Assembly: GCA_011772205.1 (NCBI GenBank)
Contig: WVZY01000016.1
Coordinates: 21,634-85,633, forward strand
Length of the DNA: 64,000 bases
From: Candidatus Latescibacterota bacterium
GTDB lineage: Bacteria; Krumholzibacteriota; Krumholzibacteriia; WVZY01
Direction: 5' to 3'
In this document: positions 4,703 to 45,842 of the stretch, piece after piece
How positions within the stretch are numbered: the first letter of the stretch is position 1
Layout of the letters: every line of letters starts with the position of its first letter
Made by a program: the position numbers and the translations under genes
The notes under the pieces: model-generated
The model's input: only the letters and a program-made list of their open reading frames with translations
Databases searched by the model: none
Told to the model about the DNA's origin: nothing

Positions 4703-4796
4703 GACGATACCCCCCTGATCAATCGGGAGTTGGAGCAAATGTCTCAGCACATGGCGATTGATTATCCGAGGTTTGCCTCTCCCTTGCATATGAGCA

Positions 4797-15059: not shown

Positions 15060-16664
15060 TTACTGAAACTCAAACGCACCAATATCAATGATGCCGACAA
15101 GGGGGCGCACCTCAGCCGTTCCCACCGGGATGAGCACGGCCTCCGGCGGATGATAGCCCGGCGTTAGAAGCGGATTCGGAAACGGTGAACCGTCTGGACT
15201 GGTCGTCGTCAGTGTTCCCGCGTCGATCACGGGGGAGCCGGTCGCCGGCCTGAGCAGGTTGCCCGCCATATCTACCAACCCTGGATCCGACCCGGTAAGG
15301 GTTCCCGTCCATTCCGGAGGGAATCCAGCACCCGTGTGAACCCAGTTGTTGCTCCCGCTCACCCGCCTGCCGAATACCCAATTGGCTTCGGAATCATCGA
15401 GCACATAATAAGAGGTGATGTAGAAGATATTGTTGTGCATTTCCACACTCTCGACGCCGAAATGCGGAAAGATGTGAGATCTGGGATTGCTGCTGTAATG
15501 AATGAACGTGTTGTTCATGAAGCGATAGCGCCCATTGCTCTGCCCGGTGCCATCGCCGCCAATACGCACATTGCGGCTGTAGCGCCTGGCAATCAACACA
15601 TTGCCGACCACGTCGCTGTCTTCCCGTGCCGTCTCCTCTGCGACTCCCCCGGCAGGATCCGGCCCGAGGAGCTCCAGGTTGTGGTAATAAGGCGCCTCCA
15701 GCCAGTTGTAGTAGATCTCGTTTCGCTCGGCCCGGCTCTTGACGTTGTTCCCGCCATTGCTGTCATGGATGTAACAGTACTGCAGACGAAATACGGATCC
15801 AGGGTAGTCGTCCTCGTTGGTTGCGATGTATAGCTGATGACGGCCGGTCCCTTCGCCGCAGCTGTAGACCTCGCAATACTCCACAGTGAGGCTGCCCGAG
15901 CCCTGGTCTGCGCCGAGGATGCCATGCGGGCAATCGTGGACGATGCAGTCGCGTATCGTGATGTCGTTTGCATGATGGTACAGCCCGCGAAATCCTGCAT
16001 TGCGAATCTCGAAGCTCTCGAACACGTAGTGGTTCATGTTGAACTCCACGACGTCGGTGCCACCATCGATGACCGGGCGATTGCCGCTGACCTTGACCCC
16101 CCGGATGGTGATGGGCTGTGCAGCAGATCCTGCCCTGCTGAAAATGACACCACCCGAATAGGTATTGCCCCCATCTACCAATACGAGATCCCCGGGTATG
16201 AGCAGCCCCACCACTTGTTGAATACTGGTATACGCTCTATTGGGACCAACCAGATAGACGTTCCCAGCGGAGGTCGTGGCCGTCGCTTGACCGGACCTTT
16301 CGCTTTCGTTGCCGGCGGCATCAAAGGCGCTCACTCGGTAACTGTAGCTGGTCCCCGCACTGAGACCGGTGTCGGCATAGGTGGTCACAGCCGTGACACC
16401 AACGGCTGCGTCGTTACGATACACCCGGTAACCATCAACGCCGACATTGTCCGTACTCGGGGACCACGAGACATCGATTCGTGTATTGGAAAAGGTATTC
16501 GCAGCGACGTTCTGGGGCACACTCGGTGCCAGCGTGTCGGGCCCGTTCGACACGAGCGGGGGACCATCACCGCCCTTCTCATCACAGCCAAAAAGGAGCA
16601 GCATTGCAAGCGCCGGTGGAGCAAAGCTAAGAACCAAGGATCTCTGTAGCGACTTTTGGAACAT
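15060..16664 (-). CDS. Lipoprotein with an FN3 domain and a parallel beta-helix (pectate-lyase-fold) domain
   Basis: The N-terminus MFQKSLQRSLVLSFAPPALAMLLLFGCDEKGG has a lipobox-like LFGC. The FN3 region reads PSVPQNVAANTFSNTRIDVSWSPSTDNVGVDGYRVYRNDAAV...YRVSAFDAAGNES. Beta-helix rungs follow, ending DIGAFEFQ. Confidence 0.7.
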   Translation of the reverse strand: MFQKSLQRSLVLSFAPPALAMLLLFGCDEKGGDGPPLVSNGPDTLAPSVPQNVAANTFSNTRIDVSWSPSTDNVGVDGYRVYRNDAAVGVTAVTTYADTGLSAGTSYSYRVSAFDAAGNESERSGQATATTSAGNVYLVGPNRAYTSIQQVVGLLIPGDLVLVDGGNTYSGGVIFSRAGSAAQPITIRGVKVSGNRPVIDGGTDVVEFNMNHYVFESFEIRNAGFRGLYHHANDITIRDCIVHDCPHGILGADQGSGSLTVEYCEVYSCGEGTGRHQLYIATNEDDYPGSVFRLQYCYIHDSNGGNNVKSRAERNEIYYNWLEAPYYHNLELLGPDPAGGVAEETAREDSDVVGNVLIARRYSRNVRIGGDGTGQSNGRYRFMNNTFIHYSSNPRSHIFPHFGVESVEMHNNIFYITSYYVLDDSEANWVFGRRVSGSNNWVHTGAGFPPEWTGTLTGSDPGLVDMAGNLLRPATGSPVIDAGTLTTTSPDGSPFPNPLLTPGYHPPEAVLIPVGTAEVRPLVGIIDIGAFEFQ

Positions 16665-16905
16665 CGTTGACCCTTTCGGTGAGTGTATCTTCTAGCAAAT
16701 GGTGCACCATTCCAACATCCTGATTAGATCTCTGCCATAAAATGAGCTAAAAACGGCATCCCCTCCTATCGCTCGATAGACTCCTCAAAGGATCCGATCT
16801 ATTAATAATTCTTGACACATGAACTCCGAAAAGTACTATAATGCGCTTCAACTCACTCAGCCAGTGCAAATGTGAACTTTTCTCAAGTGAGTAAGAGCAG
16901 CCAAC

Positions 16906-18129
16906 GTGAAAAAGATACTTTCCGTATTTTCAACAATATTGATCATCCTCCTCATCTTCCCTTTTCCTGCCGACTCGTACGAACTGACCGGCCGGATTTC
17001 GAGCGACCTTTACGCCTATCAGGGATCCAACGATGATCACATTCGTCCGTACCTTCGGTTTAGGGCGAATATGCTGGCGTGGAGGGCGGAGGACGGCCGA
17101 TCGCTCCGCTTCCATACGTCGCTGCGCTGGACATCGGATTTCGCCGATAAGCTAACGTCCGATCCCGAACTGTTTGTCTATGACGCCTACGCTCACCTGT
17201 CGGGATTGCCGACCTGGACCGATGTGTATGTCGGGCGCCAGTTCGTGTATACAGGGGTTGGCAGTGCTCTCATGGACGGTGGACGGCTCCATTTTCGCCG
17301 TGCCAAAAATTTGAGTCTCAATGTCTTCGGCGGGAGTTCGGTATCGAGCGAAGATCCAGATAAGGTGCGCTCGCTGGACGATGATCTCGTGCTCGGCGGT
17401 CACTTCATTGCGCGACCGGACAGGGCCACTAAATTGGGTCTCAGTTGGATGTTGAGACGGCGCGACGGCGACCAGAGTTTTCATCGCGTGGGGATCGATG
17501 TCGACCGGTTGTTTGGCCCGGCTGAGATTTACGGACGGGTGTCGTATAACGCCGCCGATCTCCGCCTGGCCGAAATACTGACTCGGGCGGTCTACCGGCC
17601 GGGGGCGTGGTATGTATCCGGCGAATACGGATGGCGGGAGCCGTTTGTGGCGAGCAACTCGATCTTCGCGCTGATCGATTTCAAAGAATACCGGATCGGC
17701 CGGGTCGAAGCGCGCCGCCGCGTGTGGCGGCAGCTATCCGTCCTGGCCAACGTGCAGGCCGACCTGTCGAGCGACGAAGATGCGTGGCGGACCGGAATCG
17801 GTGTCAGCACGCCGCTGGTTTCGGTCTCATGGATTCACCAGACAGGATATGCGGGAGACAATGACGGCGTGAGCGGTCATGTCAACGTCAGGTTGAATGA
17901 CCGGCTGGACTGTTACGCATCCGCCAACCTGTTCCGCTATCGTGTCCAGCAGGAGCAGGTGGAGCGTTCCGATGCGTATGCATCAACGGCGGGGCTTCGC
18001 TGGCGGCCCGGCTGGGGAGTGACGATCGTGACGGAGGGCCAGTATCTCCGAAACGCGGTTCTAAAAGACGATAGCAGGTTCCTTCTTCGGATCTCGAAAG
18101 ACTTCTCGATAAGTTCGAAAAACGGGTGA
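16906..18129 (+). CDS. Putative outer-membrane beta-barrel (porin-like) protein
   Basis: GTG start. Signal peptide MKKILSVFSTILIILLIFPFPADS. Many amphipathic strand-like segments with aromatic girdles (YVGRQFVYTG, LSWMLRRRDG, WYVSGEYGWREP, LRWRPGWGVTIVTEGQY). Its stop overlaps the next gene's start (GTGA). Confidence 0.5.
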   Translation: MKKILSVFSTILIILLIFPFPADSYELTGRISSDLYAYQGSNDDHIRPYLRFRANMLAWRAEDGRSLRFHTSLRWTSDFADKLTSDPELFVYDAYAHLSGLPTWTDVYVGRQFVYTGVGSALMDGGRLHFRRAKNLSLNVFGGSSVSSEDPDKVRSLDDDLVLGGHFIARPDRATKLGLSWMLRRRDGDQSFHRVGIDVDRLFGPAEIYGRVSYNAADLRLAEILTRAVYRPGAWYVSGEYGWREPFVASNSIFALIDFKEYRIGRVEARRRVWRQLSVLANVQADLSSDEDAWRTGIGVSTPLVSVSWIHQTGYAGDNDGVSGHVNVRLNDRLDCYASANLFRYRVQQEQVERSDAYASTAGLRWRPGWGVTIVTEGQYLRNAVLKDDSRFLLRISKDFSISSKNG

Positions 18130-19193
18130 AAGGACAGATGATGCGGGCGGCAGCCGTCATTTCCATGATAACGATACTGATCTCCGGAACGATCCTCGCG
18201 AGCAGATACCCTGGTGTCGAGCTGCACGTACCGGAAAGCGATATAATTTTCGCGCACGCCGACCATACCGATCTGGGTTGCACCGATTGCCATGCCGATA
18301 TCGAGGAGAGCGCTGACGCACAGGATCGGAATTTCCCGTCAATGGATGTTTGCGGGGACTGCCACGACATCGAAGCCGATGAGGACTGCGGGTCGTGTCA
18401 CCGAGATCCCGACGATCCGCAGGCGTCTCCGCACCCGGAGCGAATGATCATTTTCAGCCATAAGAATCATCTTGCCCGCAATATAGATTGCGCCACCTGC
18501 CACGCCACCATCGCTACCAGCTCGGAACCATCGCACGAGCACATGCCGACCATGCGCCAGTGCTTCGCGTGTCATGACGGGGTGAAGGCAGACGACGGCT
18601 GTGCGTTATGCCACGGTGACCATCTCACGTTAGCAGATATTCATCCGGCAGAGTGGCGGCATCAGCACGGGGATCGGGCGGCTCTCGAGCGGGAATGGTG
18701 CACGCAGTGCCACCGGCGGGAGAATTCATGTCTCGAGTGTCATCGCGGCGATAATCTAACGGGCAGCATACATGATCTCAATTATATTTATACGCACGGT
18801 TTGGACGCAAAAAACAAGCGCTTCGACTGCGCCAAATGCCATGACAACCGTTCCTTCTGCTACGCATGCCACGAGCGGGAAAACCGCATCCCGCTCCTGC
18901 ACTCGTCGGTTGCGTGGCTCACCGATCACGGCCGCACGGCCCGGCGGGATGTGGAGAGCTGCGCATCGTGCCACGATTCCGCCGATCCGACGTGCGCCCG
19001 GAGCGGATGCCACCGCGACGCCGATGGTTTGAGGGGTACCGATCCGCGCTTTCATGCATCGAACCTGACTTTATTCGACTCGAAGGGGCCGTGGCACAGG
19101 GATGACGGCTATTACTGCTACCGCTGTCATACGAATACGCGAAGATCCGGACAAGGATTTTGCGGCTACTGCCACGGGTACGAAGAGGACTAG
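18126..19193 (+). CDS. Multihaem cytochrome c (13 CxxCH plus one CxxxxCH)
   Basis: I counted 13 CxxCH motifs by eye (CTDCH, CGDCH, CGSCH, CATCH, CFACH, CALCH, CTQCH, CLECH, CAKCH, CYACH, CASCH, CYRCH, CGYCH) plus CARSGCH. The N-terminal hydrophobic segment is AAAVISMITILISGTILA. The start could be GTG 18126 or ATG 18138/18141. Confidence 0.85.
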   Translation: MKGQMMRAAAVISMITILISGTILASRYPGVELHVPESDIIFAHADHTDLGCTDCHADIEESADAQDRNFPSMDVCGDCHDIEADEDCGSCHRDPDDPQASPHPERMIIFSHKNHLARNIDCATCHATIATSSEPSHEHMPTMRQCFACHDGVKADDGCALCHGDHLTLADIHPAEWRHQHGDRAALEREWCTQCHRRENSCLECHRGDNLTGSIHDLNYIYTHGLDAKNKRFDCAKCHDNRSFCYACHERENRIPLLHSSVAWLTDHGRTARRDVESCASCHDSADPTCARSGCHRDADGLRGTDPRFHASNLTLFDSKGPWHRDDGYYCYRCHTNTRRSGQGFCGYCHGYEED

Positions 19194-19199
19194 GAGGCT

Positions 19200-20693
19200 A
19201 TGATTCGTCCGCGATACAGACAACACATCACGCAGCTTTGGCTCATGGCCTGTGCATTGATTGCCGCAACACTCACGCACGGCTGCAGCACGGAGAGAAA
19301 TCCAACGACGCTTCCAGGAGCCCACCCCGAGAGCTGGATGGATGAGGAATCGCCGGATTTCCACGGCCGTTTCGTTTCCCTGGACGGTACGGTAAGCTGT
19401 GCGCACTGTCACGGTATCGATGAGCCAGGCGGCCGGGTGGGCGTCGCTTGTGTGGATTGTCATGGTCCTGGTTCGAGCAACTGTATCGCCTGCCACGGCG
19501 GCCTGGACAACATCACCGGCGCCCCGCCATACGGGCTTCGCGGAGAAACATCGGATACGACGCTGGCCGTCGGTGCGCACACCACCCACCTCGACGCGTC
19601 ATCCATAGCCGCCCCGTTGTCATGCAACGCTTGCCACATTGTTCCCCTCTTTTTGTTCAGTCCCACCCATCTCGACCTATCACCGCCGGGCGGGCAACCT
19701 CTCGACTCCATTGCGGAAATAACGTGGCACGGGATTGCCGACGGTGGCAATGCTGTCTGGAACCGGTCCTCACGGACCTGCGCGGGGACTTACTGCCACG
19801 GCAGCTTTACTGGTGGCAATGCCAACAATGCTCCTATTTGGACCGGCACCGGTCAGGCCACCTGCGGCTCCTGCCACGATGTGGGGAGCGATCCAGCTCA
19901 GCTACAATGGAAACACGAGTACCATATCGAGACGGCCGGACTGCTGTGTGCTGACTGCCACGCATCTGTAATAGATACAGAGCATAATATCATTGACCTC
20001 ACGTTACACGTGAACGGCCGGGCAGATACCCTGAGACGAGACCCTTCCATCTGCGATGTCTGTCATGGGTCAGGCCCCGAGGTATGCGTGGGCTGCCACG
20101 GAGGCGTCGACAATCTGACCGGCGCGCCACCGCTGGGCCTCCGGGGAGAGACTTCGGCGGACCAGCTGGCGGTGGGTGCGCATACCCTCCATATGGAAGG
20201 CGGCACGCTGGCCGATGCGTTTGCCTGCTCGGATTGCCACAAGGTTCCTTCGAGTTTGATCGACGACGGTCATCTTGGTTTGGATTCGATTGCCGAGATG
20301 ACTTTCAGTCCGCTGGCGGGACCGTCGGCGTCCTGGACCCGCTCCACGGCGACTTGCAGCAGTATCTACTGCCATGGGAGCTTTGCGGGCGGCAACATGT
20401 CCAACAGCCCCGTGTGGACGGGATTCGATCAGGCGGATTGCGGCTCGTGTCACGATGTGGGCAGCAATCCCAACTCACTTAGCGGCCAGCATCGCGACCA
20501 TATACAAGAGGAGAACCTGGACTGCATTGAGTGCCACGTCTCGGTGGTGAGCCGACAATTGAGCATCATTGATAAGAAGCTGCACGTCGACGGATTGAAA
20601 ACGGTTGCTTTCTTGAAAGGCGGGACGTATCAGAGTGGCTCGTGCTCGGGCCTGAACAGCACGAGCTGCCACGGGACGGAAGATTGGTGGTAG
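19200..20693 (+). CDS. Multihaem cytochrome c lipoprotein with CxxxxCH...CxxCH repeat modules (11 CxxCH plus 2 CxxxxCH)
   Basis: AGGAGG lies upstream. The N-terminus ...LWLMACALIAATLTHGCSTE is lipoprotein-like. The motifs CAGTYCHGSFTGGN...CGSCHDVG and CSSIYCHGSFAGGN...CGSCHDVG resemble the Geobacter CxxxxCH...CxxCH domain family. The two halves are clearly homologous. Confidence 0.85.
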   Translation: MIRPRYRQHITQLWLMACALIAATLTHGCSTERNPTTLPGAHPESWMDEESPDFHGRFVSLDGTVSCAHCHGIDEPGGRVGVACVDCHGPGSSNCIACHGGLDNITGAPPYGLRGETSDTTLAVGAHTTHLDASSIAAPLSCNACHIVPLFLFSPTHLDLSPPGGQPLDSIAEITWHGIADGGNAVWNRSSRTCAGTYCHGSFTGGNANNAPIWTGTGQATCGSCHDVGSDPAQLQWKHEYHIETAGLLCADCHASVIDTEHNIIDLTLHVNGRADTLRRDPSICDVCHGSGPEVCVGCHGGVDNLTGAPPLGLRGETSADQLAVGAHTLHMEGGTLADAFACSDCHKVPSSLIDDGHLGLDSIAEMTFSPLAGPSASWTRSTATCSSIYCHGSFAGGNMSNSPVWTGFDQADCGSCHDVGSNPNSLSGQHRDHIQEENLDCIECHVSVVSRQLSIIDKKLHVDGLKTVAFLKGGTYQSGSCSGLNSTSCHGTEDWW

Positions 20694-21219: not shown

Positions 21220-21633
21220 GTGAGAGAAGCAACGCAGAAGATACGGCTCATTCTCGTGGATGACGAGGCCGAATTCTTAGCATCCACAGCTGCAGCGCTG
21301 ATACGGCGAGGGATAGACGTGACTACCGCCCGGAGCGGATGGATCGCGCTCGAATTGTTGAACGACCAAAAGTTTGACGTAGCGATTCTCGACCTCAAGA
21401 TGCCCGGGATGTCTGGAAAGGTGCTCCATAGTGAGATCAAGCGACGCTGCCCGGACATGCCTGTGATTATTCTAACCGGTCACGGAAATTCCGAGCAAGT
21501 AGGTCATTTCTCCAAGGAAGGAATTTTTCACTATCTTTCCAAACCTTGCGATATGGAGACTCTCGTCAGCGTGACCAGACAATCTGTGGACAAATACTGG
21601 CAGAGATGGTTTCGCAGATTGAACCTCTCTTAA
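21220..21633 (+). CDS. Stand-alone response-regulator receiver protein (CheY-like)
   Basis: GTG start. Sequence MREATQKIRLILVDDEAEFL...FDVAILDLKMPGMSG...PVIILTGHG...LSKP. No output domain. Confidence 0.8.
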   Translation: MREATQKIRLILVDDEAEFLASTAAALIRRGIDVTTARSGWIALELLNDQKFDVAILDLKMPGMSGKVLHSEIKRRCPDMPVIILTGHGNSEQVGHFSKEGIFHYLSKPCDMETLVSVTRQSVDKYWQRWFRRLNLS

Positions 21634-22080
21634 TATTGCACGACGAGCTCTTTGGTCAATTGCCATGGATCGCTCTGCCAACGATATCGACAAGCCATTG
21701 ATAACGGTGCTTTTCAAATAGCCAGCAGCTCTTTTTCGTTCACGGGTCGAATAAGCCCGGTTATTGAAAATGATACACTCAATAGCCGGGCTTATTTTTA
21801 GGGAGACACCTCGTGATGGAAATTCCGGATTATTCGCACTGAGCGTGCGAGACGCGCTGCGTGATGGGGATGACGAACTATTGCGCGGATGCAAGCAGGG
21901 AGGCTCTGCGCAGGTGAGGAACCCCCATCACGCAGCAATCATACAAGCATCCTCCGCTGATGGCGAACAACCGACCGAAGCGAACGCAGGTCCGTAGTCC
22001 TCGTTTCCCATCCGTCCGCAAAATAACCTACTGTGTCTTAGAGTTTCCTATGCTTGAAACCAGCGCGAAATTATGAAAGA

Positions 22081-22106
22081 ACGCGGGAGCAAAACTGCTC
22101 CCGCGT
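22081..22106. terminator. Perfect 10-bp hairpin ACGCGGGAGC-AAAACT-GCTCCCGCGT downstream of the 22170..22697 gene
   Basis: Read from the sequence. On the minus strand the hairpin is followed by TTCTTTCATAATTTC. Confidence 0.5.
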
Positions 22107-22169
22107 CCGAGGATTATTTATTTCCTCACTCCTATTTACGCCACACAGCTACTTGACGTCCATCCCGGT

Positions 22170-22697
22170 TCAGGGAAGAGAGACAGGCGACTCTTTTCCG
22201 ATTCCGTTCTCCAACAGGTTATTCCTGCAGTCAACGACCTGGATACCTTCGGGCCAGACCGAATGCGGGAGCACCTTGAACAACGTACCTGATGGGGAGT
22301 TGCCGGGCGACTGGTACGTCAGGGTCATCACGTGGACCGCATCAAATAAGCAGGTCCCGTACGCGATTGCGATCCCATCGTCGATGTCGCCAATACTCAA
22401 CGGAAATTGAACTTCGGCTCCAATTCGTACCCAGCCAGCAGGTGTTTCAATCTTGAAAGCTGATGCCGTTGCACCGTTCGCGACGTCATGGACAACGTAA
22501 AATACCACAGTGCCACCGGTGTCGACCAAGTTGGGATCAGTTCCCTCCTCATCTGCATAAACTCCAATGCTGCCCGCTAAAACAGGCTCCTCCGGTGGCT
22601 TCCTGGTAGAAGCGGGGTTATCGCTACTACAAGCGATGAAGAGACTGAGTACGAGCAGGATGCAGACAGGACAAATGATTCTAAATGCCTTATTCAT
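22170..22697 (-). CDS. Hypothetical lipoprotein
   Basis: The internal start ATG 22697 (GGAGGAGG upstream) gives MNKAFRIICPVCILLVLSLFIACSSDNPAS, a lipobox. No functional motif. Confidence 0.55.
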   Translation of the reverse strand: MNKAFRIICPVCILLVLSLFIACSSDNPASTRKPPEEPVLAGSIGVYADEEGTDPNLVDTGGTVVFYVVHDVANGATASAFKIETPAGWVRIGAEVQFPLSIGDIDDGIAIAYGTCLFDAVHVMTLTYQSPGNSPSGTLFKVLPHSVWPEGIQVVDCRNNLLENGIGKESPVSLP

Positions 22698-23075
22698 CTT
22701 GCTTTGAACCTCCTCCCAGATGAGAGCGCAATGGACAAGTGCCAAAGAATGGCTCCTTGCCGATATCATGGAATATGACCTCTGGCAATCGGCGAATGGG
22801 AGCAAAAATTGTTCCACTATTTCTGATCCTATTGTTCCACCCGTCCCGTCAAAGGTAGTGAGGCTCATAATGCCCTATCGTTATCCATATCTTCAAAATG
22901 CAGCCCGCAAAATGCGGCGGGCACGCGGGAATATTATCGATGGACTTCGTTGCACACCTGCCATCGGTTTTAAAGATCGCTGCATCATTGCTCACTAGCA
23001 CGCGAAGCAATGACACCGAAGTCCATGGATAAAAGTCCAGGCAAGCGACAATTTATGCCGAACTAACGCAAAAAG

Positions 23076-23084
23076 TGTTATAAT
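23076..23084 (+). promoter_or_regulatory. Extended -10 promoter element TGTTATAAT upstream of the 23193 response regulator gene
   Basis: Exact TGnTATAAT read at 23076-23084, about 110 nt upstream of the start. Confidence 0.35.
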
Positions 23085-23192
23085 GCCAGTGGGAAAAGAC
23101 CGAGATAGTAAGAACCTTAGAAACCATAGAATAACGAATACGCCACACGACATTTCCCGTTGCAAACCCTGTCCACGAGGGAGGTGGTTTGA

Positions 23193-23867
23193 TTGTCGGA
23201 AGAGGAAAACTCGAAGGAAAAGAAAAAAAAGCGTACTAAAGGCGTAAAAAAGAAGATTGAAGATTGGATGGTGAGGATCTCGTTTGCCGAAGCCGGGGAA
23301 CCTGATGCCGGATTCGAGGTTACCGGGGAAGAAATCAAGCGCAAAATAAAGCTCGCGATGGACAAGATCATGATCACGCGGTCGGAGAAAATGGCTCCCA
23401 AGCGAGCCGAAGCAGTTGATCAGGAACCAATCGTTAGGCCTCCGGCAGCCCGGGAGAGAAAGGAACGACCGGCCGGCGAAAGTCTACAAGTCATGATCAT
23501 CGATGATGAGCCCATCGTAGGAAAGCGCCTTCAACCCGCCCTGAGCAAGTACGGGATGGACGTCGAGGTGTTCACAGAATCCACCGAGGCACTCTCTCGG
23601 CTCAACGAGAAAGAATTCGACATCGTCGTCACCGATCTAAAGATGGAAGAAGTGGACGGCCTCCAGGTGCTGGCACACGTGATGTCGACATGCCCCAACA
23701 CCAGGGTGATCATGATCACCGGATACGGCTCAGTAGAGGTGGCCAGAGAAGCGCTCACCAAAGGTGCGTTTGATTTCGTCTCCAAACCCTTCAAGCCCAA
23801 GGACCTGCGGGCAATCATCAACAAAGCAGCATTGTCGATGGGATTCGAGGGAATTGATAGCGGCTAG
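23193..23867 (+). CDS. Response-regulator receiver protein with a ~95-aa Lys/Glu-rich N-terminal extension
   Basis: TTG start with GAGGGAGG upstream. N-terminus MSEEENSKEKKKKRTKGVKKKIEDW... The receiver domain reads LQVMIIDDEPIVGKRL...DIVVTDLKMEEVDGLQVL...VIMITGYG...FVSKPF. No DNA-binding or enzymatic output domain. Confidence 0.75.
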   Translation: MSEEENSKEKKKKRTKGVKKKIEDWMVRISFAEAGEPDAGFEVTGEEIKRKIKLAMDKIMITRSEKMAPKRAEAVDQEPIVRPPAARERKERPAGESLQVMIIDDEPIVGKRLQPALSKYGMDVEVFTESTEALSRLNEKEFDIVVTDLKMEEVDGLQVLAHVMSTCPNTRVIMITGYGSVEVAREALTKGAFDFVSKPFKPKDLRAIINKAALSMGFEGIDSG

Positions 23868-23921
23868 AATATAGCGGCAAGGCAGCGCGGCTGGGCACGC
23901 AACATTTCGGGGAGTTGATTT

Positions 23922-24326
23922 TCAGGCTCCGGATGCTTCTTCATTGAGCGAGTCGGCGGCGCGAGCGACGATACTGCGGATCTCGTTTACGTCGAAGGGC
24001 TTAGCGATGAAATCGAAGGCGCCGCTCGCCATCGCTTTACGGGCCATATCCATCATGGCGAATGCGGTGATGATGATGACTTTCGTACTGGATGACTTCT
24101 GCATTACGTGCTCCAAAACTTGAATCCCGTCGATGTCACCCATCACAATATCTGTAACCACAATGTCAAACTTCTTCTCGTCGAATCTCCTGAGGGCAAG
24201 CTCCGGATCCTCGAAAGCTTCCACTTCGAAACCGAGTCTGCGCAACGCGATTTTCACCGATCTGCAGACCATGGGCTCATCGTCCAGTACGAGAACCTCA
24301 AGTCCTTTGTATTTCCCTTCCTCCAT
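23922..24326 (-). CDS. Stand-alone response-regulator receiver protein
   Basis: 134 aa. Sequence LEVLVLDDEPMVCRSV...DIVVTDIVMGDIDGIQVL...VIIITAF...FIAKPF. Confidence 0.85.
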   Translation of the reverse strand: MEEGKYKGLEVLVLDDEPMVCRSVKIALRRLGFEVEAFEDPELALRRFDEKKFDIVVTDIVMGDIDGIQVLEHVMQKSSSTKVIIITAFAMMDMARKAMASGAFDFIAKPFDVNEIRSIVARAADSLNEEASGA

Positions 24327-24372
24327 AGATCTTCCTGCCGGAACTCAATGGTAACTCGGGTTCACCGGGTCT

Positions 24373-25956
24373 TCAATCATCTCCTCCCTCATCCTCGGAC
24401 TTCTCAGGACGAGAAGTAATATCGGAAGGTATGGTGGTCACAGGCAACAGCACGGTGAAGGTGGATCCGACACCCAGCTCGCTTTTCACCAAGAGATACC
24501 CGCCCAGCTTCCTTACGATTCCTCGGGAAACAGACAGCCCCAGTCCGGTTCCCTTGGCCTTGGGCTTGGTGGTAAAGAACGGATCGAAGATCTGGCTCAA
24601 GACATGCCCCGGCATGCCTGGACCGTTATCAGTGACGTCCACGCCCACAAAACCGTCCCGCCGATTCGTGTTGGTGCTGATGCGGATCTCTCCTTTTTCG
24701 GGGAGGACATCCAGAGCGTTGATGATCAGGTTCATGAACACCTGGCCAAGCAGATGACTGTCGCCATGCACGGCCGGCAGCACGTCCGGTACATCCATGA
24801 TCAGACGAACCTTCTTCATCCGTATTTGGTTGGCCACAAGCTCCACGGTCTTTTCCAGGATCGTTTTCATGTCCAGGGGTTCAAACTTGGTCTCACTGTG
24901 CCGAGCGAAGTCCAGCAAATTCCTAACAATCTTTTTCGTCCGCTCCACTTGAGCGACCAGATCCTGGAGCATCTCTTGCTTCTCACTATCTTCCAGGGAG
25001 TCGTATTCCTCCTCGAGCAATGAGGCAGTGAGCAGGATGTTGTTCATGGGGTTGTTCAGCTCATGTGCCACGCCCGAAACCAGGTTGCCCATGGCCCGGA
25101 GCTTGTGGGACTCCATTAGGATGCGGTGCTGTTGATCCAGCTCCCTCACCATCCGGTTGATATTCAGAGCGAGCAGGGAGAATTCGTCGCGGTACCTGCG
25201 CTTTGGAGTAATGGGCGTGAAATCTCCGGATGCGATCCTGTCGGTATACCCGATGAAGCGGTTTAAAGCCTTCAGGATGTAACGCGCTAAGAAGGCCACT
25301 ACCAACATCATGAGCGCGAACAGCACTCCCAGAAAGTAGAACGGCACATTGCGGGTCAAGTGGAGCATGGAATGAACCATCCTTCTCTCCTTGACCACGA
25401 ACTCCTGCGCTTGTGCAAACACCTTAGCGCCGTGTTCCCTCAGTTCCCCTTCATATTCGGCTCGATTACCCTGGCCCACAACGTCCAAGAGCTGTATGTA
25501 AACAGCCAGGTGCTCGTTCATGTCTCGAAGAGTTTTCTCCCCTACGACTCTGCGGAAGCGCTCGGCGTTTTCCTCGCTGAGACTTTGAGCCGTCCGAGCA
25601 TGTTCACGGGCATCATCTAGGTTGGTACCGTACAGCAGGAAGTTTTTCTCAAACCTGCGGGCTTGCTGAATCTCCACTTTGTAGTCGTCGGCCGCCTCCA
25701 GGAAGAGAATCTTGTCGTGCACCCCGGCAAGGACACTAATGATCCAGATAGTGATAAACAGTGTGAATAAGAAGAGGAGAGAAAAGGACAGTATCAACCG
25801 CAAGCGGATGTTGAAGATGGGCCTGTCCAGGATCGCCTTGTCTGCAGCTTCGTCGTATTCTCTGTCCCGCCGCGCAAATCCCTCCGAAGTAAGTACCGAG
25901 TGCAGGTCTGGAGGACTCGGAGTCTCCGGATGTGTGCTTTGATCGCTTTCCGGCAT
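24373..25956 (-). CDS. Sensor histidine kinase (two TM segments, HAMP, HisKA, HATPase)
   Basis: H-box VSGVAHELNNPMNNI, N-box NLIINALDV, G-boxes DNGPGM and GTGLGLS. HAMP-like segment IASGDFTPITPKRRYRDEFSLLALNINRMV. Confidence 0.85.
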   Translation of the reverse strand: MPESDQSTHPETPSPPDLHSVLTSEGFARRDREYDEAADKAILDRPIFNIRLRLILSFSLLFLFTLFITIWIISVLAGVHDKILFLEAADDYKVEIQQARRFEKNFLLYGTNLDDAREHARTAQSLSEENAERFRRVVGEKTLRDMNEHLAVYIQLLDVVGQGNRAEYEGELREHGAKVFAQAQEFVVKERRMVHSMLHLTRNVPFYFLGVLFALMMLVVAFLARYILKALNRFIGYTDRIASGDFTPITPKRRYRDEFSLLALNINRMVRELDQQHRILMESHKLRAMGNLVSGVAHELNNPMNNILLTASLLEEEYDSLEDSEKQEMLQDLVAQVERTKKIVRNLLDFARHSETKFEPLDMKTILEKTVELVANQIRMKKVRLIMDVPDVLPAVHGDSHLLGQVFMNLIINALDVLPEKGEIRISTNTNRRDGFVGVDVTDNGPGMPGHVLSQIFDPFFTTKPKAKGTGLGLSVSRGIVRKLGGYLLVKSELGVGSTFTVLLPVTTIPSDITSRPEKSEDEGGDD

Positions 25957-26003
25957 CCCCTACCTCTGCCATTCGAACGGCTAATAGGAACAGCTATTAA
26001 GTC

Positions 26004-26396
26004 TTATTCGGCCTCCGAGGATTTCTTGAGTTCTCGGGTCGCCTTTTCGAGCAACTTGCGAAGCTCCTTGGGCCGAAAGGGCTTGGCGATGAAACCGAAA
26101 GCACCTTTTGCCTGTGCTTCCCGCGCCAATTCCACCGTTGCGTATCCGGTGATCATGATCGTTTTCGATCTGGGAGAGTTCTCTTGAACAGCCTGCAGAA
26201 CATCCAAGCCGTTCACCTCGTCCATTCGTATGTCAGCGACGACAATATCGAATAATTCCTTTTTCAATCGATCGATGGCCTCTTGACCGCTTTGATAGAC
26301 TTCGATTGCGTATCCATCTTTTTCCAGAGCTATTTTGAGCCGCTTGCCAACAATCTCTTCATCATCGACGAGCAATACCTTTATCTTGCTTTCCAT
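26004..26396 (-). CDS. Stand-alone response-regulator receiver protein
   Basis: The internal start ATG 26396 of ORF 26004..26654 gives MESKIKVLLVDDEEIVGKRL...DIVVADIRMDEVNGLDVL...IMITGYA...FIAKPF (130 aa). Confidence 0.85.
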   Translation of the reverse strand: MESKIKVLLVDDEEIVGKRLKIALEKDGYAIEVYQSGQEAIDRLKKELFDIVVADIRMDEVNGLDVLQAVQENSPRSKTIMITGYATVELAREAQAKGAFGFIAKPFRPKELRKLLEKATRELKKSSEAE

Positions 26397-26407
26397 TATG
26401 AATCCCT

Positions 26408-27502
26408 TCAGAGTGGCGCGGCGGGTTCCTTGCTTGCGATCAAAGAGGCATGTACCTTCCGCCGTTGTATGTACGCTTTGAAGACAAAGAACAGAATGAT
26501 CAGTGCGCCGGTGATTCCGCTGGCAAAGAGCAAACCTTTGCTCAGCGAGTTGAAAATGGCGTCTTTGCTTGGGTCGAATTCGATATAACCGAGCTGCCGC
26601 AAGTAAGCTGGGATGTTGACGGCCCGGCTGATCACGCACAGCAATATGATGCATGAGGTAGCCAAACGGATAACCACCTCCCGCACCACTTTCGTGCCGT
26701 ACGCGCCCATGTGAATGCCGATGAGGGAGCCTATGAAGAGCAATAAGGTTAACCGTATGTCCACCATTCCTCTAAGCCCGTAGTTCAGCGCCCCCCAGGC
26801 GCCCATGAACTGGGCCAAGAATAGCTCTGTTCCGGCGGCGACCTGAGAGGAGACGCCGAAGAGGTAAATCATGGCCGGAACGCCGATGAATCCTCCCACA
26901 CCAATGGTCCCGGCCAGATACCCGGTTGCCAGGCCGCAGATCAGGACAATCCAAAGAGACACCTTCACATCTGCCACCGAAAAGTTGATCAAGGGATACA
27001 AGTGCAATCGGCTGAGGAAATCTACGATCCTTCGTGACGGTTTGACCTCCTCCGCTCCACGGGACCGAATGATGTCACGAAGCATGGAAATGGAAACAAA
27101 GGAGAGCACGAATACGAAGATCAAGCTGATGTACAGATTGGCTCCAGCTCCCTTCTCCTCTCCCTTGCCGCCGGCCACACCCGCCAGCTTCATCAGCCAT
27201 GCCGCCAGTGAGATGCCGGCCGCGGCGGTGATCAGCATGAAAATGGCCAGCTTCTTGTCCACGTGCCCCATCTCCCCGTGACGCTTGGCCCCAATCATGG
27301 CCTTGCCGAACTTATGGGTGATGTTGCTGGCCACCGCAATGTTACCCGGCACACCTAGGTTCATCATCCCGGGGGTCATGAAGAAAGCACCGCCGCTACC
27401 AATGAAGCCACTCAACGTCCCCCCAATGAAGCCGAGCAAGATCACCTGGGCGGCTGCTGCCCAGTCGATCTCGACAAAACTTCCCAAAATGAAATCGGGC
27501 AT
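26408..27502 (-). CDS. TauE/SafE-family (DUF81) anion permease
   Basis: Start ATG 27502 (AGGGAGA upstream). Multiple TM helices with the GxxxGxxGxGGG-type motif (LLGFIGGTLSGFIGSGGAFF; LATGYLAGTIGVGGFIGVP). Confidence 0.8.
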   Translation of the reverse strand: MPDFILGSFVEIDWAAAAQVILLGFIGGTLSGFIGSGGAFFMTPGMMNLGVPGNIAVASNITHKFGKAMIGAKRHGEMGHVDKKLAIFMLITAAAGISLAAWLMKLAGVAGGKGEEKGAGANLYISLIFVFVLSFVSISMLRDIIRSRGAEEVKPSRRIVDFLSRLHLYPLINFSVADVKVSLWIVLICGLATGYLAGTIGVGGFIGVPAMIYLFGVSSQVAAGTELFLAQFMGAWGALNYGLRGMVDIRLTLLLFIGSLIGIHMGAYGTKVVREVVIRLATSCIILLCVISRAVNIPAYLRQLGYIEFDPSKDAIFNSLSKGLLFASGITGALIILFFVFKAYIQRRKVHASLIASKEPAAPL

Positions 27503-27513
27503 GTGGTTCTCCC

Positions 27514-29028
27514 TTACTCGAACCTGAATAGTTTGAGGAGGTGACGTGCAAAGTTGCCATATAAGTATGCAAAGACAGGCACGAACAACAAGATGGCTGC
27601 TGTAGCGAGGATGCTTCTCCAGGTTCCTGTTCCGGAGAGGAAGGAGAGAGCCTTTTCCTGATTTGTGAATATCAGGAAGGTTAAGAGAAACGCCAGCGCT
27701 GCAAAGACGAGAAACCTCACCCATTGCGCCGGCCCGAACAGATACTGAGTCTTCAGCTCCTCCGTTCCGACAACCGGCACGCGGAAGGCGCCCGAGAGGT
27801 GTCCGATCAAGTCGCGTGAAAGCCGTTTGCGTACCGACTCCGATTTTGACATGAACACATCACCCACCACAATCAAACTGTATGGAGCCGTTCTGTCCAA
27901 GCTGCTGATCAGATCCTTAGCGCTGCCGGGCACGATCCGGCTTCCTCCAGCACGCCCTGCATCGATCAGGCGCTGCCGTGTTTGCTGAAGACCGGTATCT
28001 TCCATTCCCTCCTCTTCACCCGCAACATCATCCAAGATACCCCCGTGTTCTTCTACGCTCTCTGTCTCCGCTCCTGTTTCAGCGGGCTCGATACCTGCCA
28101 GCTGGCCGACTTCCGTCCCGCTTTTGGCCAGTTGAATCAGCTCAACCGCTGCATTCCACTTGCTGGCTATCTCCAGGATCTGGTTCAGTGACTCGCTTTG
28201 CGGATCGTACCGCTCCTGGATCCACATGATGTTAGTGGTTGCCATCGTGCAGAGGATCTCTTCGACGCCTTCGATCGCTTTGAGCACGTCCGAGATGAAT
28301 TGAGCGCTGCGCTCCTGGCGTGGCAGGTAGGTCACCGAAATCCTGCCGCGCTCCGCTCTCACCTGGACATCCAAGTCCCGCGTCCTTTGGTCTGCTCCGA
28401 TAGCCAGACGGCACCGCGAAGCGAGCAACAGATCTTCCATTACCTTGCGTGTGGCCGGCGTGATTTGGTATTCCGGGAGCTGGGCCACAGTGACCAATGC
28501 GGCCGCAGCGTTGTCCACATTCAAGTGGGAAAGGTTGATCACCATATCGTAATGTGCCGGGTCTTGCCAGTCGATGTTGTAGAGCGTTCGCGCCCAGCGT
28601 CTGCGGTCCTCGTCCACCTGCTCGATGTACTTCAACGCTTTCTCGCGGCTCAGATTGAGCCGGTTCATGGAAACCTCAGTGCGTTGATCCGGGTCCATGA
28701 TTACCCGTACTCGGAGCACGTGCGAAACGCCTGGCAGCGCCAGGTGCCCGATCCGGCCGTTATAGACCAGGCCTCCCCCGATGGCCCGTTCACAAAGAGT
28801 AGCGGTGACAAATGCTTTGAATCGTTCCCTCTCGATGGCCAGCCTTTCGCTCAGGGGCTGGCGCCGGGAAACAGCGATCTCCAACTTGCCCACAAGGATC
28901 CCCGCATGCGTAGCTGCATCGGTAAGCTCCTCACGGGCAAGGCAGCCGTATCCTAGGTTTCCGGCAAGCTTCTCCGCCAGGCTCTTCCCCCCGGCGAAAG
29001 TGCCTCTAGAAACGCAGACAAGTTGCAT
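27514..29028 (-). CDS. Cytidylate-kinase-like family protein with C-terminal transmembrane helices
   Basis: The N-terminus MQLVCVSRGTFAGGKSLAEKLAGNLGYGC...YDMVINLSHL resembles the cytidylate kinase-like family 2. The C-terminal hydrophobic segments are FLVFAALAFLLTFLIF and ILATAAILLFVPVFAYLYG. Confidence 0.6.
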   Translation of the reverse strand: MQLVCVSRGTFAGGKSLAEKLAGNLGYGCLAREELTDAATHAGILVGKLEIAVSRRQPLSERLAIERERFKAFVTATLCERAIGGGLVYNGRIGHLALPGVSHVLRVRVIMDPDQRTEVSMNRLNLSREKALKYIEQVDEDRRRWARTLYNIDWQDPAHYDMVINLSHLNVDNAAAALVTVAQLPEYQITPATRKVMEDLLLASRCRLAIGADQRTRDLDVQVRAERGRISVTYLPRQERSAQFISDVLKAIEGVEEILCTMATTNIMWIQERYDPQSESLNQILEIASKWNAAVELIQLAKSGTEVGQLAGIEPAETGAETESVEEHGGILDDVAGEEEGMEDTGLQQTRQRLIDAGRAGGSRIVPGSAKDLISSLDRTAPYSLIVVGDVFMSKSESVRKRLSRDLIGHLSGAFRVPVVGTEELKTQYLFGPAQWVRFLVFAALAFLLTFLIFTNQEKALSFLSGTGTWRSILATAAILLFVPVFAYLYGNFARHLLKLFRFE

Positions 29029-30757: not shown

Positions 30758-31393
30758 ATGACACTAAGAGACTTATTGCAGGAGAAAAAGACGGCCATCG
30801 TTGAGAGGTGGCTGGAAGACATACTGGCCACATATGCCAGCGATGCTTCGAGTTTCCTCAGGCGAGAGAGGGATCCGTTTGCCAATCCTGTGAGCCATGC
30901 GTTTCGCGTCGGTACGCGCGCTATCTTCGAGAACATCGTCGAAGGATTGGACGCGGACACCGTCTGCCGTCATCTTAACGAGATCATTAAAATCAGAGCC
31001 ATCCAAGACTTTTCTCCATCGCGGGCAGTGTCGTTCGTCTTTCTCCTTAAAAAAGCCATTCGCACCGAACTCGGAAACGACATAGAAGACCGCCAACTCT
31101 CCAAAGAGCTGGCGGAGATCGACACCGATATCGACCAAATAGCGCTTTTCGCATTTGATATATATTCACGATGCCGAGAGCAGGTGTACGAGCTTCGAGT
31201 CAACGAAGTAAAGAGAAGCGTTTCAGCTTTAATGGGAAGGTTTACTGGAAACGACTCCGATCCGGAGTCGCTTCCCGGGCCATCCGGTGGCAACAAGTCA
31301 TCCGGCAATCCCAAGCCGGACTCATTGCCCCGCTTGTCCGATGACGATGGGTTGTCCGGCGATAGCTCGTCCGTGCGGGGTGGTAAGAAGTGA
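30758..31393 (+). CDS. RsbRD-N-terminal-domain-like protein in the dsrT position (putative DsrT)
   Basis: Starts MTLRDLLQEKKTAIVERWLEDILATYASDASSFLRRERDPFANPVSHAF (ATG 30758, or GTG 30755). Its stop overlaps the dsrM GTG start (GTGA). Assigned by position directly upstream of dsrMKJOP and by N-terminal similarity recalled from memory. Confidence 0.5.
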   Translation: MTLRDLLQEKKTAIVERWLEDILATYASDASSFLRRERDPFANPVSHAFRVGTRAIFENIVEGLDADTVCRHLNEIIKIRAIQDFSPSRAVSFVFLLKKAIRTELGNDIEDRQLSKELAEIDTDIDQIALFAFDIYSRCREQVYELRVNEVKRSVSALMGRFTGNDSDPESLPGPSGGNKSSGNPKPDSLPRLSDDDGLSGDSSSVRGGKK

Positions 31394-32379
31394 ACGTTTT
31401 CATTTCGCTCGCAGCAGTTGTCTTTCTCTTTCTAGCGGGCCTGTTAGGAGCGGGAGCAGGTCTCGACGCTCTGTTCGGTATCGTCATTCCATACATCGCT
31501 ATTTTTCTTTTTCTGGGCGGGTTGATCTACCGCGTAATGATCTGGGCAAATGTGCCGGTCCCCTTCCGCATTCCCACGACATCCGGGCAGGAGAAGTCGC
31601 TTCCGTGGATCAAGCAGTCAAAGCTGGACAACCCCAGCAGCACACTCGGTGTTATCGGCAGAATGGCTTTGGAAATTCTCTGTTTCCGATCGCTTCTGAA
31701 AAATACGAAAACGGAATTGCACGAAGACGGACATGTCGCGTACGGGTCCAGCTTATGGCTGTGGCTCGGGTCCATGGCGTTTCACTGGTCGATGCTCATT
31801 ATACTATTGAGGCACATTCGGCTCTTCATCGAACCGGTACCTGGTGCCATCACGTTCCTGCACAAACTGGATGGATTCCTGCAGATCGGGGCCCCGGTTT
31901 TCTACGTGACGTCATTTATATTCCCGATAGCCCTGCTGTACTTGTTGTTCAGGAGGCTGGGCGATCCCAAACTGCGCTACATCTCACTCGTAAACGATTA
32001 TTTTCCCTTGTTCCTGCTAATAGGCGTCGGCATCAGCGGATTCTGGCTAAGGTATATTTCGAAAACGGACATCGCGTCCGTCAAAGAGCTGACTGTGGGA
32101 CTCATGAGCTTCCGGCCAGTCACTCCCGCTGCGATCAGCCCACTTTTCTACGGGCATCTGTTCCTCGTTTGCGTGCTCTTGGGCTACTTCCCATTCAGCA
32201 AGCTGGTCCACATGGCCGGCGTGTTCTTTAGCCCCACGCGGAACCTGGCGAACACCAACCGGGAGGCTCATCATGCCAATCCATGGGACTATCCCGTAAA
32301 GGTACATACATATGAGGAATACGAGGATGAGTTCAGGGAAAAGATGAAGGCTGTCGGCATCCCGGTCGAGAAAGAATGA
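31390..32379 (+). CDS. dsrM: DsrM, membrane dihaem cytochrome b (NarI/HdrE-like)
   Basis: 329 aa, polytopic. It contains the kind of conserved His-bearing helices expected of this family (MAFHWSMLIILLRHIRLF; FYGHLFLVCVLLGYFPFSKLVHMAG). It sits immediately upstream of dsrK, overlapping it by ATGA. Confidence 0.85.
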   Translation: MNVFISLAAVVFLFLAGLLGAGAGLDALFGIVIPYIAIFLFLGGLIYRVMIWANVPVPFRIPTTSGQEKSLPWIKQSKLDNPSSTLGVIGRMALEILCFRSLLKNTKTELHEDGHVAYGSSLWLWLGSMAFHWSMLIILLRHIRLFIEPVPGAITFLHKLDGFLQIGAPVFYVTSFIFPIALLYLLFRRLGDPKLRYISLVNDYFPLFLLIGVGISGFWLRYISKTDIASVKELTVGLMSFRPVTPAAISPLFYGHLFLVCVLLGYFPFSKLVHMAGVFFSPTRNLANTNREAHHANPWDYPVKVHTYEEYEDEFREKMKAVGIPVEKE

Positions 32380-34082: not shown

Positions 34083-34458
34083 CAAGAGCAAGAGCATCGT
34101 CGGACTGGTCATCTTCCTCGCCCTTGTGATTTTTCCGGTTTTGTACAACTTTGCGGTAGGGGGCGCCGGGCCGCGACCGGAACTGGAACTACCCGAAGGT
34201 GAATCCAGATGTGTCGAAGACAAAGACTTCATGACCGCACATCACATGGATCTTCTGCTCGAATGGCGTGACGCGGTCGTTCGTCAAGGTAAGAAAAATT
34301 ACACATCCCAGGCTTTTGGCGAAATATACGAGATGAGCCTCACGGGGACGTGCATGAATTGCCATACAAAGAGGGAGACATTTTGCACCCGGTGTCACGA
34401 TTATGCCGATGTCGACAACGATTGCTGGGGCTGCCATGTCGAGCCGGAGGGACAATGA
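34075..34458 (+). CDS. dsrJ: DsrJ, periplasmic trihaem cytochrome c
   Basis: The internal start ATG 34075 of ORF 33943..34458 gives MNDKSKSIVGLVIFLALVIFPVLY (anchor). There are three CxxCH motifs (CMNCH, CTRCH, CWGCH). It overlaps the dsrK stop by 8 nt. Confidence 0.85.
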   Translation: MNDKSKSIVGLVIFLALVIFPVLYNFAVGGAGPRPELELPEGESRCVEDKDFMTAHHMDLLLEWRDAVVRQGKKNYTSQAFGEIYEMSLTGTCMNCHTKRETFCTRCHDYADVDNDCWGCHVEPEGQ

Positions 34459-34461
34459 ACG

Positions 34462-35250: not shown

Positions 35251-35257
35251 GGTCATT

Positions 35258-37786: not shown

Positions 37787-37840
37787 CCGCCCGGCGACAA
37801 TATCAGCCGGCTGACTGTTTGCGGATCAGGAGGATGAAGA

Positions 37841-42298: not shown

Positions 42299-42404
42299 TG
42301 TGTCTGTGCCTCCTTCCATGAAGACTCTCGTCAATCGCTAGACCACATAACATTGACTTTCCTTTTTCTCAATAAAGGAATCCTCTGTGGAAAAGCATCT
42401 ATGG

Positions 42405-43562: not shown

Positions 43563-43577
43563 GCTTCCCACCAACTC

Positions 43578-45833: not shown

Positions 45834-45842
45834 TGGACGACC

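Follow-up and report, generated by a model that had tools for sequence, protein, structure and literature searches.

The 64,000-nucleotide stretch of contig WVZY01000016.1 (assembly GCA_011772205.1, Candidatus Latescibacterota bacterium) analyzed here, hereafter the window, contains at positions 16906-20693 a compact set of three genes coding for a predicted outer-membrane β-barrel and two multihaem cytochromes. A prior interpretation made from the letters alone, the sequence-only reading, had recognized three genes at this position, had counted 14 and 13 haem motifs in the two cytochromes and had likened the whole to the porin-cytochrome (Pcc) modules of Geobacter. The list of open reading frames (ORFs) bears out the three genes, and both haem counts are likewise recovered. 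The genes, with coordinates from this list, and the signals bracketing them are as follows:

16812-16842, + strand: sigma-70-like promoter candidate, TTGACA-N16-TACTAT (16812-16839) or TTGACA-N19-TATAAT; 10/12 match
16906-18129, + strand: barrel gene, 407 amino acids (aa), GTG start
18126-19193, + strand: 14-haem cytochrome gene, 355 aa as an ORF
19200-20693, + strand: 13-haem lipoprotein cytochrome gene, 497 aa
20784-20828, + strand: intrinsic-terminator-like hairpin of 14 bp, 8 of them GC, then CTTTTTGT

These genes are tightly packed between one promoter-like site and one terminator and constitute a three-gene operon, whose G+C content is the same as that of its flanks. The promoter candidate lies about 65 nucleotides upstream of the barrel gene and has its position as its only support, the count of sigma-70-like sites in the region not being above shuffle expectation; the terminator-like hairpin begins 90 nucleotides past the last stop codon of the operon. 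For comparison we assembled 36 related loci (L001-L036), 28 of them from a scan of species-representative genomes with a 12-sequence barrel alignment and the rest by exact-protein look-up. The TGA stop codon of the barrel gene (18127-18129) overlaps a GTG at 18126, and the resulting GTGA overlap, from which the sequence-only reading had started the first cytochrome, is present as described and offers a possible start, but is probably not the real one. In the relative L036 (82% identical) a TGA stop codon occupies the position of a CAG in the window, just before an ATG-ATG pair, and both this pair and an AAAGGA Shine-Dalgarno motif are common to the two sequences. Because of this upstream stop codon and these shared signals, the ATG at 18138/18141, located 8-11 nucleotides past the barrel stop, is more likely to be the true start of the 14-haem gene. 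Four-nucleotide overlaps between the barrel and 14-haem genes are common elsewhere among the related loci, and tight translational coupling is therefore a trait of the family. The second cytochrome gene follows the first after a gap of 6 nucleotides and is preceded, as had been claimed, by an AGGAGG of its own (19192-19197), which overlaps the TAG stop codon and lies 2 nucleotides from the ATG.

The barrel protein starts with MKK, a hydrophobic core and ADS|YE, a pattern typical of Sec signal peptides, and has no match at E <= 1 in Pfam or NCBIfam. An AlphaFold2 model computed from a 56-sequence alignment has high confidence (predicted local distance difference test, pLDDT, 90.6; predicted template modelling score, pTM, 0.78) and consists of an N-terminal signal helix followed by 22 β-strands. 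The strands alternate between a hydrophobic face with a mean hydropathy of +1.10 and a polar, Arg-rich face with a mean of -1.24. Foldseek searches of the PDB with this model recovered outer-membrane barrels only, namely the FimD/PapC ushers, Occ/OprD porins and AlgE, at template modelling (TM) scores of 0.3-0.55; there was no MtrB-specific match in this search, and the family profile found no match among PDB sequences. Going by the model, the fold class of the protein is certain, and it is without a close solved relative. As the 383 mature residues are spread over 22 strands and the longest loop measures 17 residues, both a plug domain and a long constriction loop are absent from the barrel. 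By standard barrel geometry (n = 22, S about 24) its C-alpha diameter is ~40 Å, and if unoccupied such a barrel would leave an open pore about 3 nm wide. Since an empty barrel of such size would amount to a large hole, we infer that a partner protein normally occupies it. A word-indexed search yielded 81 relatives of the barrel, all labelled hypothetical, the few with an organism label coming mostly from metagenome-assembled genomes (MAGs) of Zixibacteria, and an exhaustive profile search yielded 834 representative clusters at E <= 1e-3, with 165 at E <= 1e-30. Both searches returned only proteins of the FCB group, of KSB1 and of unnamed metagenomic origin. No paralogue of the barrel occurs in the window, and among the related loci there is one barrel per locus.

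The first cytochrome combines 13 CxxCH motifs with one CxxxxCH motif behind a Sec-type N-terminus (…ILA|SR), with about 330 mature residues or ~23 residues per haem. The density of haem motifs in the two cytochromes is far beyond chance, given that apart from them only one ORF of the 64-kb window, that of the trihaem DsrJ with 3 motifs, has at least two CxxCH motifs. The 14 haem motifs, together with ~12 further histidines, are all invariant or nearly so across 21 aligned relatives, and these additional histidines would be enough for predominantly bis-His ligation of the haems. In the distant relatives L031, L033, L034 and L035 a canonical CxxCH stands opposite the CxxxxCH site, CARSGCH (18993-19013), which is for this reason a genuine haem site with a two-residue insertion. 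Family libraries returned generic c3/c7 domains and a short local match to PF22113 (33.8 bits), with no match at E <= 1 to the decahaem family models (DmsE/MtrA), and searches of PDB sequences gave weak generic multihaem matches only (6lod at 1e-6). As a separate observation, the 14-haem gene is missed or miscalled in the public gene calls of some MAGs (L036:10359-11571; in L010 and L013 the stretch from the barrel to the last cytochrome). In L036 the ORF called is a spurious one on the minus strand; the intact ORF is present with 14 motifs. Automated surveys may under-count complete Pcc operons owing to such miscalls.

The second cytochrome has 11 CxxCH and two CxxxxCH motifs, arranged as a single CxxCH at the N-terminus and, after it, a tandem pair of six-haem modules sharing 52% identity (E = 5e-66). 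It matches TIGR01904 in two stretches with 85.3 bits (cut-off 27) and PF09698, the 'Geobacter CxxxxCH…CxxCH' domain, with 39.4 bits (cut-off 21.7), and has no match among PDB sequences. Close to its C-terminus an invariant C482...C490-H491 (window 20641-20672), which is Cx7CH here and Cx5CH in most relatives, could be a fourteenth, atypical haem site or else form a disulfide beside a haem ligand. Its N-terminus consists of basic residues, a hydrophobic core and L-T-H-G-C29. The lipobox cysteine is present in 47 of 47 aligned relatives and is preceded by G, S or A in 45 of the 47; the lipoprotein signal is therefore a character of the family. After the cysteine the family consensus reads C-S-[D/S]-[E/Q]-R, with S-D-E in many members and S-T-E-R, with one acidic residue only, in the window; the surface-lipoprotein export signal of Bacteroidetes consists of a polar residue and then two or more acidic residues after the cysteine (PMC5080379). 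For neither cytochrome did searches of Pfam, NCBIfam and PDB sequences uncover a catalytic-site signature, an enzyme family or a close solved relative. The lipoprotein cytochrome family enlarges by whole six-haem modules of ~190 aa, giving size classes of ~13 haems (495 aa), 20 haems (690 aa), 25-26 haems (875 aa) and 43-46 haems (1500-1660 aa); examples from these classes (L014:7675-12663, L026:8168-12733, L001:10338-12989 and L013:8282-10348) are all encoded behind the barrel/14-haem pair.

Every related locus with enough downstream sequence has the barrel gene followed directly by one for a ~340-390-aa cytochrome with 13+1 (or 14+0) haem motifs. The CxxxxCH-family lipoprotein cytochrome follows in 21 of the 23 distinct loci that are long enough (20 intact genes and a frameshifted fragment in L005); in L033 and L034 no lipoprotein cytochrome is found after the pair. 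The flanking genes are wholly different between loci. At barrel identities of 20-30% the multihaem pairing is still kept, as seen in a genome of KSB1 and in two contigs, one Handelsmanbacteria-like and another Zixibacteria-like, and in these comparisons the barrel/14-haem pair is an invariant unit across a large, otherwise unannotated family. Geobacter and Ignavibacterium album were not among the 28 scanned loci, which is uninformative because the pattern scan is blind to distant relatives. In the distant loci the pair adjoins genes for CYTB-fused multihaem proteins (CbcL-like), NapC/NirT-type cytochromes, Rieske/cytochrome b proteins and Ccm proteins, and these loci also hold 880-925-aa multihaem cytochromes with Por_Secre_tail domains of the type IX secretion system (T9SS) or FlgD_ig domains (cytochromes and membrane cytochromes at L034:2617-5268, L035:2036-4813, L033:10764-12716 and L035:11255-13213). 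Such sets amount to a complete pathway from the inner membrane to the outside, the opposite of a periplasm-only association; the window operon has no such set in its vicinity. The sequence-only reading had put forward several points for checking, and on these the 407-aa protein is predicted to be a secreted barrel rather than a non-barrel or cytoplasmic protein, the second cytochrome has its lipoprotein signal and the Geobacter-type domain, the three genes co-occur, and the homologues are not confined to periplasm-only settings, since distant relatives adjoin giant T9SS/FlgD_ig cytochromes and membrane cytochromes of the quinol-oxidase type.

Pcc clusters have been defined by a porin-like protein with 18-22 trans-membrane motifs and an always-adjacent periplasmic cytochrome with 5-14 haems, to which most clusters add an outer-membrane cytochrome, in some cases with atypical CX3-15CH motifs (PMC4245776). 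The window operon, with 22 strands in its barrel, an adjacent secreted cytochrome with 14 haem motifs and a predicted outer-membrane cytochrome with atypical motifs, falls within these ranges. One published cluster, IALB_1839/1838/1837 of I. album, lies outside the Geobacter groups and couples a 14-haem periplasmic cytochrome to an outer-membrane cytochrome with atypical motifs (PMC4245776). In the supplement of the FeGenie study similarity to the I. album cluster is given for an operon from Handelsmanbacteria, with E-values of 4e-32 against {porin}, 9e-82 against {pc} and 1e-44 against {omc}, and for one from Zixibacteria RBG_16_43_9, with 2e-19 against the porin and 3e-53 against the pc (PMC7005843, Data Sheet 8; the I. 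album pc and omc have the identifiers 2514223671 and 2514223670). We compared the window proteins with the Handelsmanbacteria and Zixibacteria sequences printed there. The barrel matches the two printed porins with BLASTP E-values of 1e-26 and 5e-24, and its family profile does so with 3e-49 and 7e-58; the 14-haem cytochrome is 43% identical to the RBG_16_43_9 pc (E = 4e-108) and 35% identical to the second printed pc (E = 1e-62); and the lipoprotein cytochrome is 35% identical to the Handelsmanbacteria omc (E = 2e-46). Furthermore, the barrel profiles reach a Dadabacteria porin with E-values of 4e-17 to 6e-33, which in the FeGenie study was matched to the Pcc porin of Desulfurobacterium thermolithotrophum, a member of group III of Shi et al. 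(PMC7005843). Through these intermediates, whose genes stand in the same order, the trio can be placed, by sequence comparison, in the Pcc superfamily, closest to the I. album type.

Based on these observations we consider it highly probable that the operon codes for a Pcc trans-outer-membrane electron conduit of the I. album type. By analogy with MtrA in MtrB, the 14-haem cytochrome would thread the lumen of the barrel and so span the outer membrane, and by analogy with MtrCAB and the Geobacter Pcc the lipoprotein cytochrome would dock on the outer face of the barrel as a cap. Electrons could then hop along a chain of ~27 haems that links the cytochrome pool of the periplasm with a partner outside the cell, such as a mineral, a humic substance, an electrode or another cell, and the conduit, which coexists in this organism with a complete Sat-Apr-Qmo-Dsr pathway, might offer electrons either another outlet or a way in. 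As far as the sequence goes, flow could run in either direction, and the metals, electrodes and partners named by the sequence-only reading are all candidates. Precedents point in different directions: Ignavibacteria with OmbB-like PCCs become enriched on anodes and Fe(III) is reduced by M. roseus (PMC7399161), I. album showed no growth on Fe(III)/Mn(IV) oxides (PMC4245776), and D. ferrophilus takes up electrons through outer-membrane cytochromes during sulfate reduction (PMC5815863).

Several points weigh against this interpretation. The homology to the I. album trio is transitive, running through the printed intermediates, and I. album itself, the one carrier in culture that Shi et al. name, failed to grow on Fe(III) or Mn(IV) oxides (PMC4245776). 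The lipobox of the window protein, L-T-H-G-C, departs from the canonical L-[AS]-[GA]-C at -2 and -3. The surface exposure of the lipoprotein is presumed, and its S-T-E-R after the cysteine resembles the Bacteroidetes export signal only partly, a likeness that is given little weight because of the single acidic residue. The AlphaFold2 model of the 497-aa cytochrome has low confidence (pLDDT 63.6) and a Foldseek search of the PDB with it came back empty; it was not used as evidence. The window encodes no inner-membrane quinol-oxidizing cytochrome, and the supply side of the putative conduit is thus not seen there. To our knowledge, neither purification nor a genetic test is on record for any member of this Pcc lineage.

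Genes for dissimilatory sulfur metabolism and associated functions lie elsewhere in the window:

26408-27724 and 39592-40605, - strand: TauE/SafE-family (sulfite exporter-like) membrane proteins, which bracket the dsr locus
31390-36421: dsrMKJOP
36581-38923: dsrAB
41069-42334, - strand: sat
42405-47102, - strand: qmoCBA
48448-50340, - strand: aprA
50401-50871, - strand: aprB
50874-51530, - strand: Rex-type redox regulator
52365-53909 (-), 57926-59605 (-), 61022-61759 (+) and 62306-63667 (-): accessory/cofactor genes

The accessory genes near this set encode a CobB/CobQ-like amidotransferase (DsrN-like), a GltD/DsrL-like Fe-S flavoprotein, a tetrapyrrole methylase and a glutamyl-tRNA reductase (HemA), and sirohaem-related genes are also present in the window; a quick look just after dsrB recognized no dsrD-like ORF. 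Given the Sat/AprAB/QmoABC/DsrAB/DsrMKJOP set, the organism is a putative sulfate or sulfite reducer. The sequence-only reading had remarked on a full sulfate-reduction gene set within about 10 kb of the operon, and these genes are indeed present on the same contig at 10-30 kb from it, but their proximity to the operon is not conserved. In the 82% relative L036 the module lies in an unrelated neighborhood, and the neighborhood differs in all other loci too. As the proximity is not kept in this relative, the distance of ~10 kb between the Pcc and dsr loci reflects co-occurrence in one genome and not functional linkage, and a functional link of the operon to the dsr locus was rejected on these grounds.

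Immediately around the operon lie regulators and unrelated surface proteins. Directly downstream there is a dense regulatory cluster at 21220-26654 with four or five response-regulator genes (21220, 23193, 23922 on the - strand and 26004 on the - strand) and a HAMP histidine kinase at 24373-25956 (-). In L036 and L033, too, the module has two-component genes at its flanks, on different sides, so that an association is only suggestive. Upstream are a right-handed β-helix surface lipoprotein (…LLFGC) with an fn3 domain at 15060-16664 (-) and, farther off, a right-handed β-helix surface protein at 3335-4789 (-) with a T9SS Por_Secre_tail/FlgD_ig C-terminus; the T9SS signal of the latter fits an FCB-group organism. 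Neither the fn3/β-helix lipoprotein gene nor the response regulators are conserved beside the module, and both were rejected as parts of it. In L036 a T9SS-tailed multicopper oxidase (Cu-oxidase_2 + Por_Secre_tail; L036:2009-4576, - strand) is encoded ~4.6 kb upstream of the Pcc module, the barrel gene of which begins at 9175, with a two-component cluster in between. Scans of the window for tRNAs and Rfam families gave no match.

The same conduit could also run inwards, with an external donor such as Fe(0), Fe(II)/sulfide minerals, a cathode or a syntrophic partner (for instance a methane or alkane oxidizer) feeding DsrMKJOP and Qmo-Apr via periplasmic cytochromes. This would be electrotrophic sulfate reduction as proposed for Desulfovibrio ferrophilus and for the sulfate-reducing bacteria that partner anaerobic methanotrophic archaea (ANME), and it competes with an outward conduit on role and not on the machine. 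The presence of the complete sulfate-reduction set on the same contig and the lack of a quinol-oxidizing cytochrome adjoining the operon in the window agree with such a direction, for which precedents exist in the use of outer-membrane cytochromes for electron uptake during sulfate reduction by D. ferrophilus (PMC5815863) and in extracellular electron transfer (EET) by syntrophic sulfate reducers (PMC5539420). However, the proximity of the Pcc and dsr genes is lost in the 82% relative and elsewhere, the distant relatives join the module to CbcL-like and NapC-type quinol oxidases typical of outward EET, and multihaem wires are reversible, so that sequence cannot decide on the direction. We therefore hold inward flow to be possible but doubtful. 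An extended version is distinctly less probable still: here the conduit would wire minerals, Fe(0) or a syntrophic partner to Sat-Apr-Qmo-Dsr, possibly via the periplasmic trihaem DsrJ, and the minimal 22-strand/14-haem pair, with a surface cytochrome of up to ~45 haems, would form a self-sufficient lineage apart from the Mtr and Geobacter systems. If true, abundant Zixibacteria-like sediment bacteria would be electrotrophic sulfate reducers.

A different question is whether the partner is a metal oxide at all or an extracellular sulfur or organic redox species, such as elemental sulfur/polysulfide, humics or particulate organic matter. Shi et al. suggested partners of this kind for Pcc clusters in non-iron-reducers, and such clusters occur in S(0) reducers and also in two organisms that show no growth on Fe/Mn oxides, I. 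album and D. alkaliphilus (PMC4245776). The energy metabolism of the organism is sulfur-based and a rhodanese gene adjoins the module in the KSB1 locus L033, yet no sulfur-specific gene lies in or beside the window operon among its regulators and surface proteins, and surveys of the FeGenie type tie Zixibacteria with such operons to ferruginous sediment zones (PMC10809760); on balance we regard a partner of this kind as unlikely. Finally, the operon might specify no conduit, the barrel being an ordinary diffusion or export channel that happens to be co-operonic with two periplasmic cytochromes of a periplasm-only redox pathway or a haem enzyme. The barrel does lack a Pfam or NCBIfam assignment, its Foldseek matches are generic porins and ushers, and the localization of the cytochromes is a prediction. 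Nevertheless, over the whole range of 20-85% identity the barrel is never seen apart from a 14-haem cytochrome encoded directly downstream, the stop and start codons of the two frequently overlapping; a constriction loop or plug, as a 22-strand solute channel would be expected to have, is missing; the third protein bears a family-wide lipoprotein signal; the conserved histidines are ample for bis-His haems of the wire type; no catalytic-site signature or enzyme family match was found for the proteins; and there is the homology to published Pcc clusters. Taken together these observations make such a channel very improbable.

Parts of this picture were on record before. Porin-cytochrome operons of the Geobacter/Ignavibacterium-like kind in Zixibacteria are known from FeGenie screens (PMC7005843; PMC10809760), in which 26 Zixibacteria MAGs were scored as iron reducers (PMC10809760), and mtrAB genes and multihaem proteins (PMC9769843) as well as the full reductive Dsr pathway (PMC6018805; PMC10591310) have been reported from the same group. 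To this record the present analysis contributes a confident model of a 22-strand, plug-less barrel from a family that had lacked annotation. It further shows that the barrel/14-haem pair is invariant, that the surface cytochrome grows by modules, and that a putative conduit and a complete sulfate-reduction pathway occur together on a single contig from an uncultured bacterium of the FCB group (Zixibacteria-like). Outer-membrane cytochromes as such are already known from sulfate reducers. Zixibacteria are repeatedly scored as 'iron reducers' in sediment surveys from operons like this one, and the co-resident sulfate-reduction genes caution against such one-trait assignments, besides making one ask if electrons leave or enter the cell through the conduit; the significance of the system would rise were it shown to feed sulfate reduction. 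The barrel family comprises hundreds of sequence clusters and is in all cases coupled to a cytochrome of the 14-haem type; Pfam and NCBIfam contain no model of it, and no relative has been solved. With the confident 22-strand model and a clean alignment available, it lends itself to being defined as a family and to structural studies of a conduit that is a compact alternative to MtrAB.

Among known systems the I. album Pcc is the nearest counterpart. It shares with the window operon the order porin, periplasmic cytochrome, outer-membrane cytochrome, the 14 haem motifs of the periplasmic cytochrome as well as an outer-membrane cytochrome (IALB_1837) annotated as a CxxxxCH...CXXCH domain protein, and its host, like that of the window operon, belongs to the FCB group. 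The two differ in that the I. album periplasmic cytochrome has 400 aa as against about 355 aa in the window, in the single CX4CH site of the window protein, Shi et al. having seen no atypical motifs in periplasmic Pcc cytochromes (PMC4245776), and in the host, which here is a putative sulfate reducer of a Zixibacteria-like lineage. The Geobacter sulfurreducens OmbB-OmaB-OmcB system (also OmbC-OmaC-OmcC) follows the same three-part logic in the same gene order, the window barrel lies within the 18-22 strands of Pcc porins, and the TIGR01904/PF09698 domain family of the third protein was first defined in Geobacter. To this extent the likeness to the Geobacter modules noted by the sequence-only reading stands. 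However, the haem counts of 14 + 13 contrast with the 8 + 12 of Geobacter and set the operon apart from the group I subgroup, no orfR/orfS-type regulator gene precedes it, and the porin and periplasmic cytochrome of I. album, whose type it shares, were themselves placed outside Geobacter groups I and V (PMC4245776).

The mechanistic model of a multihaem cytochrome sheathed by a barrel and relayed to a surface lipoprotein cytochrome comes from MtrCAB of Shewanella and from MtoAB and PioAB. MtrB is much larger, with 26-28 strands as against the 22 strands and 383 mature residues of the window barrel, and the window proteins have no match at E <= 1 to the MtrB/PioB or DmsE/MtrA families; as far as these family searches reach, the conduit appears to be a lineage independent of MtrCAB, MtoAB and PioAB. 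In sulfate reducers, clusters with 12-14-haem outer-membrane cytochromes have been proposed to function in extracellular electron exchange in Desulfovibrio ferrophilus (DFE_448-451 and DFE_461-465) and in SEEP-SRB1. Those of D. ferrophilus use NHL β-propeller proteins and not a recognized barrel (PMC5815863), and the ANME-partner SEEP-SRB1 is without homologues of known Pcc porins (PMC5539420), whereas the putative sulfate reducer of the window has a barrel of the Pcc type.

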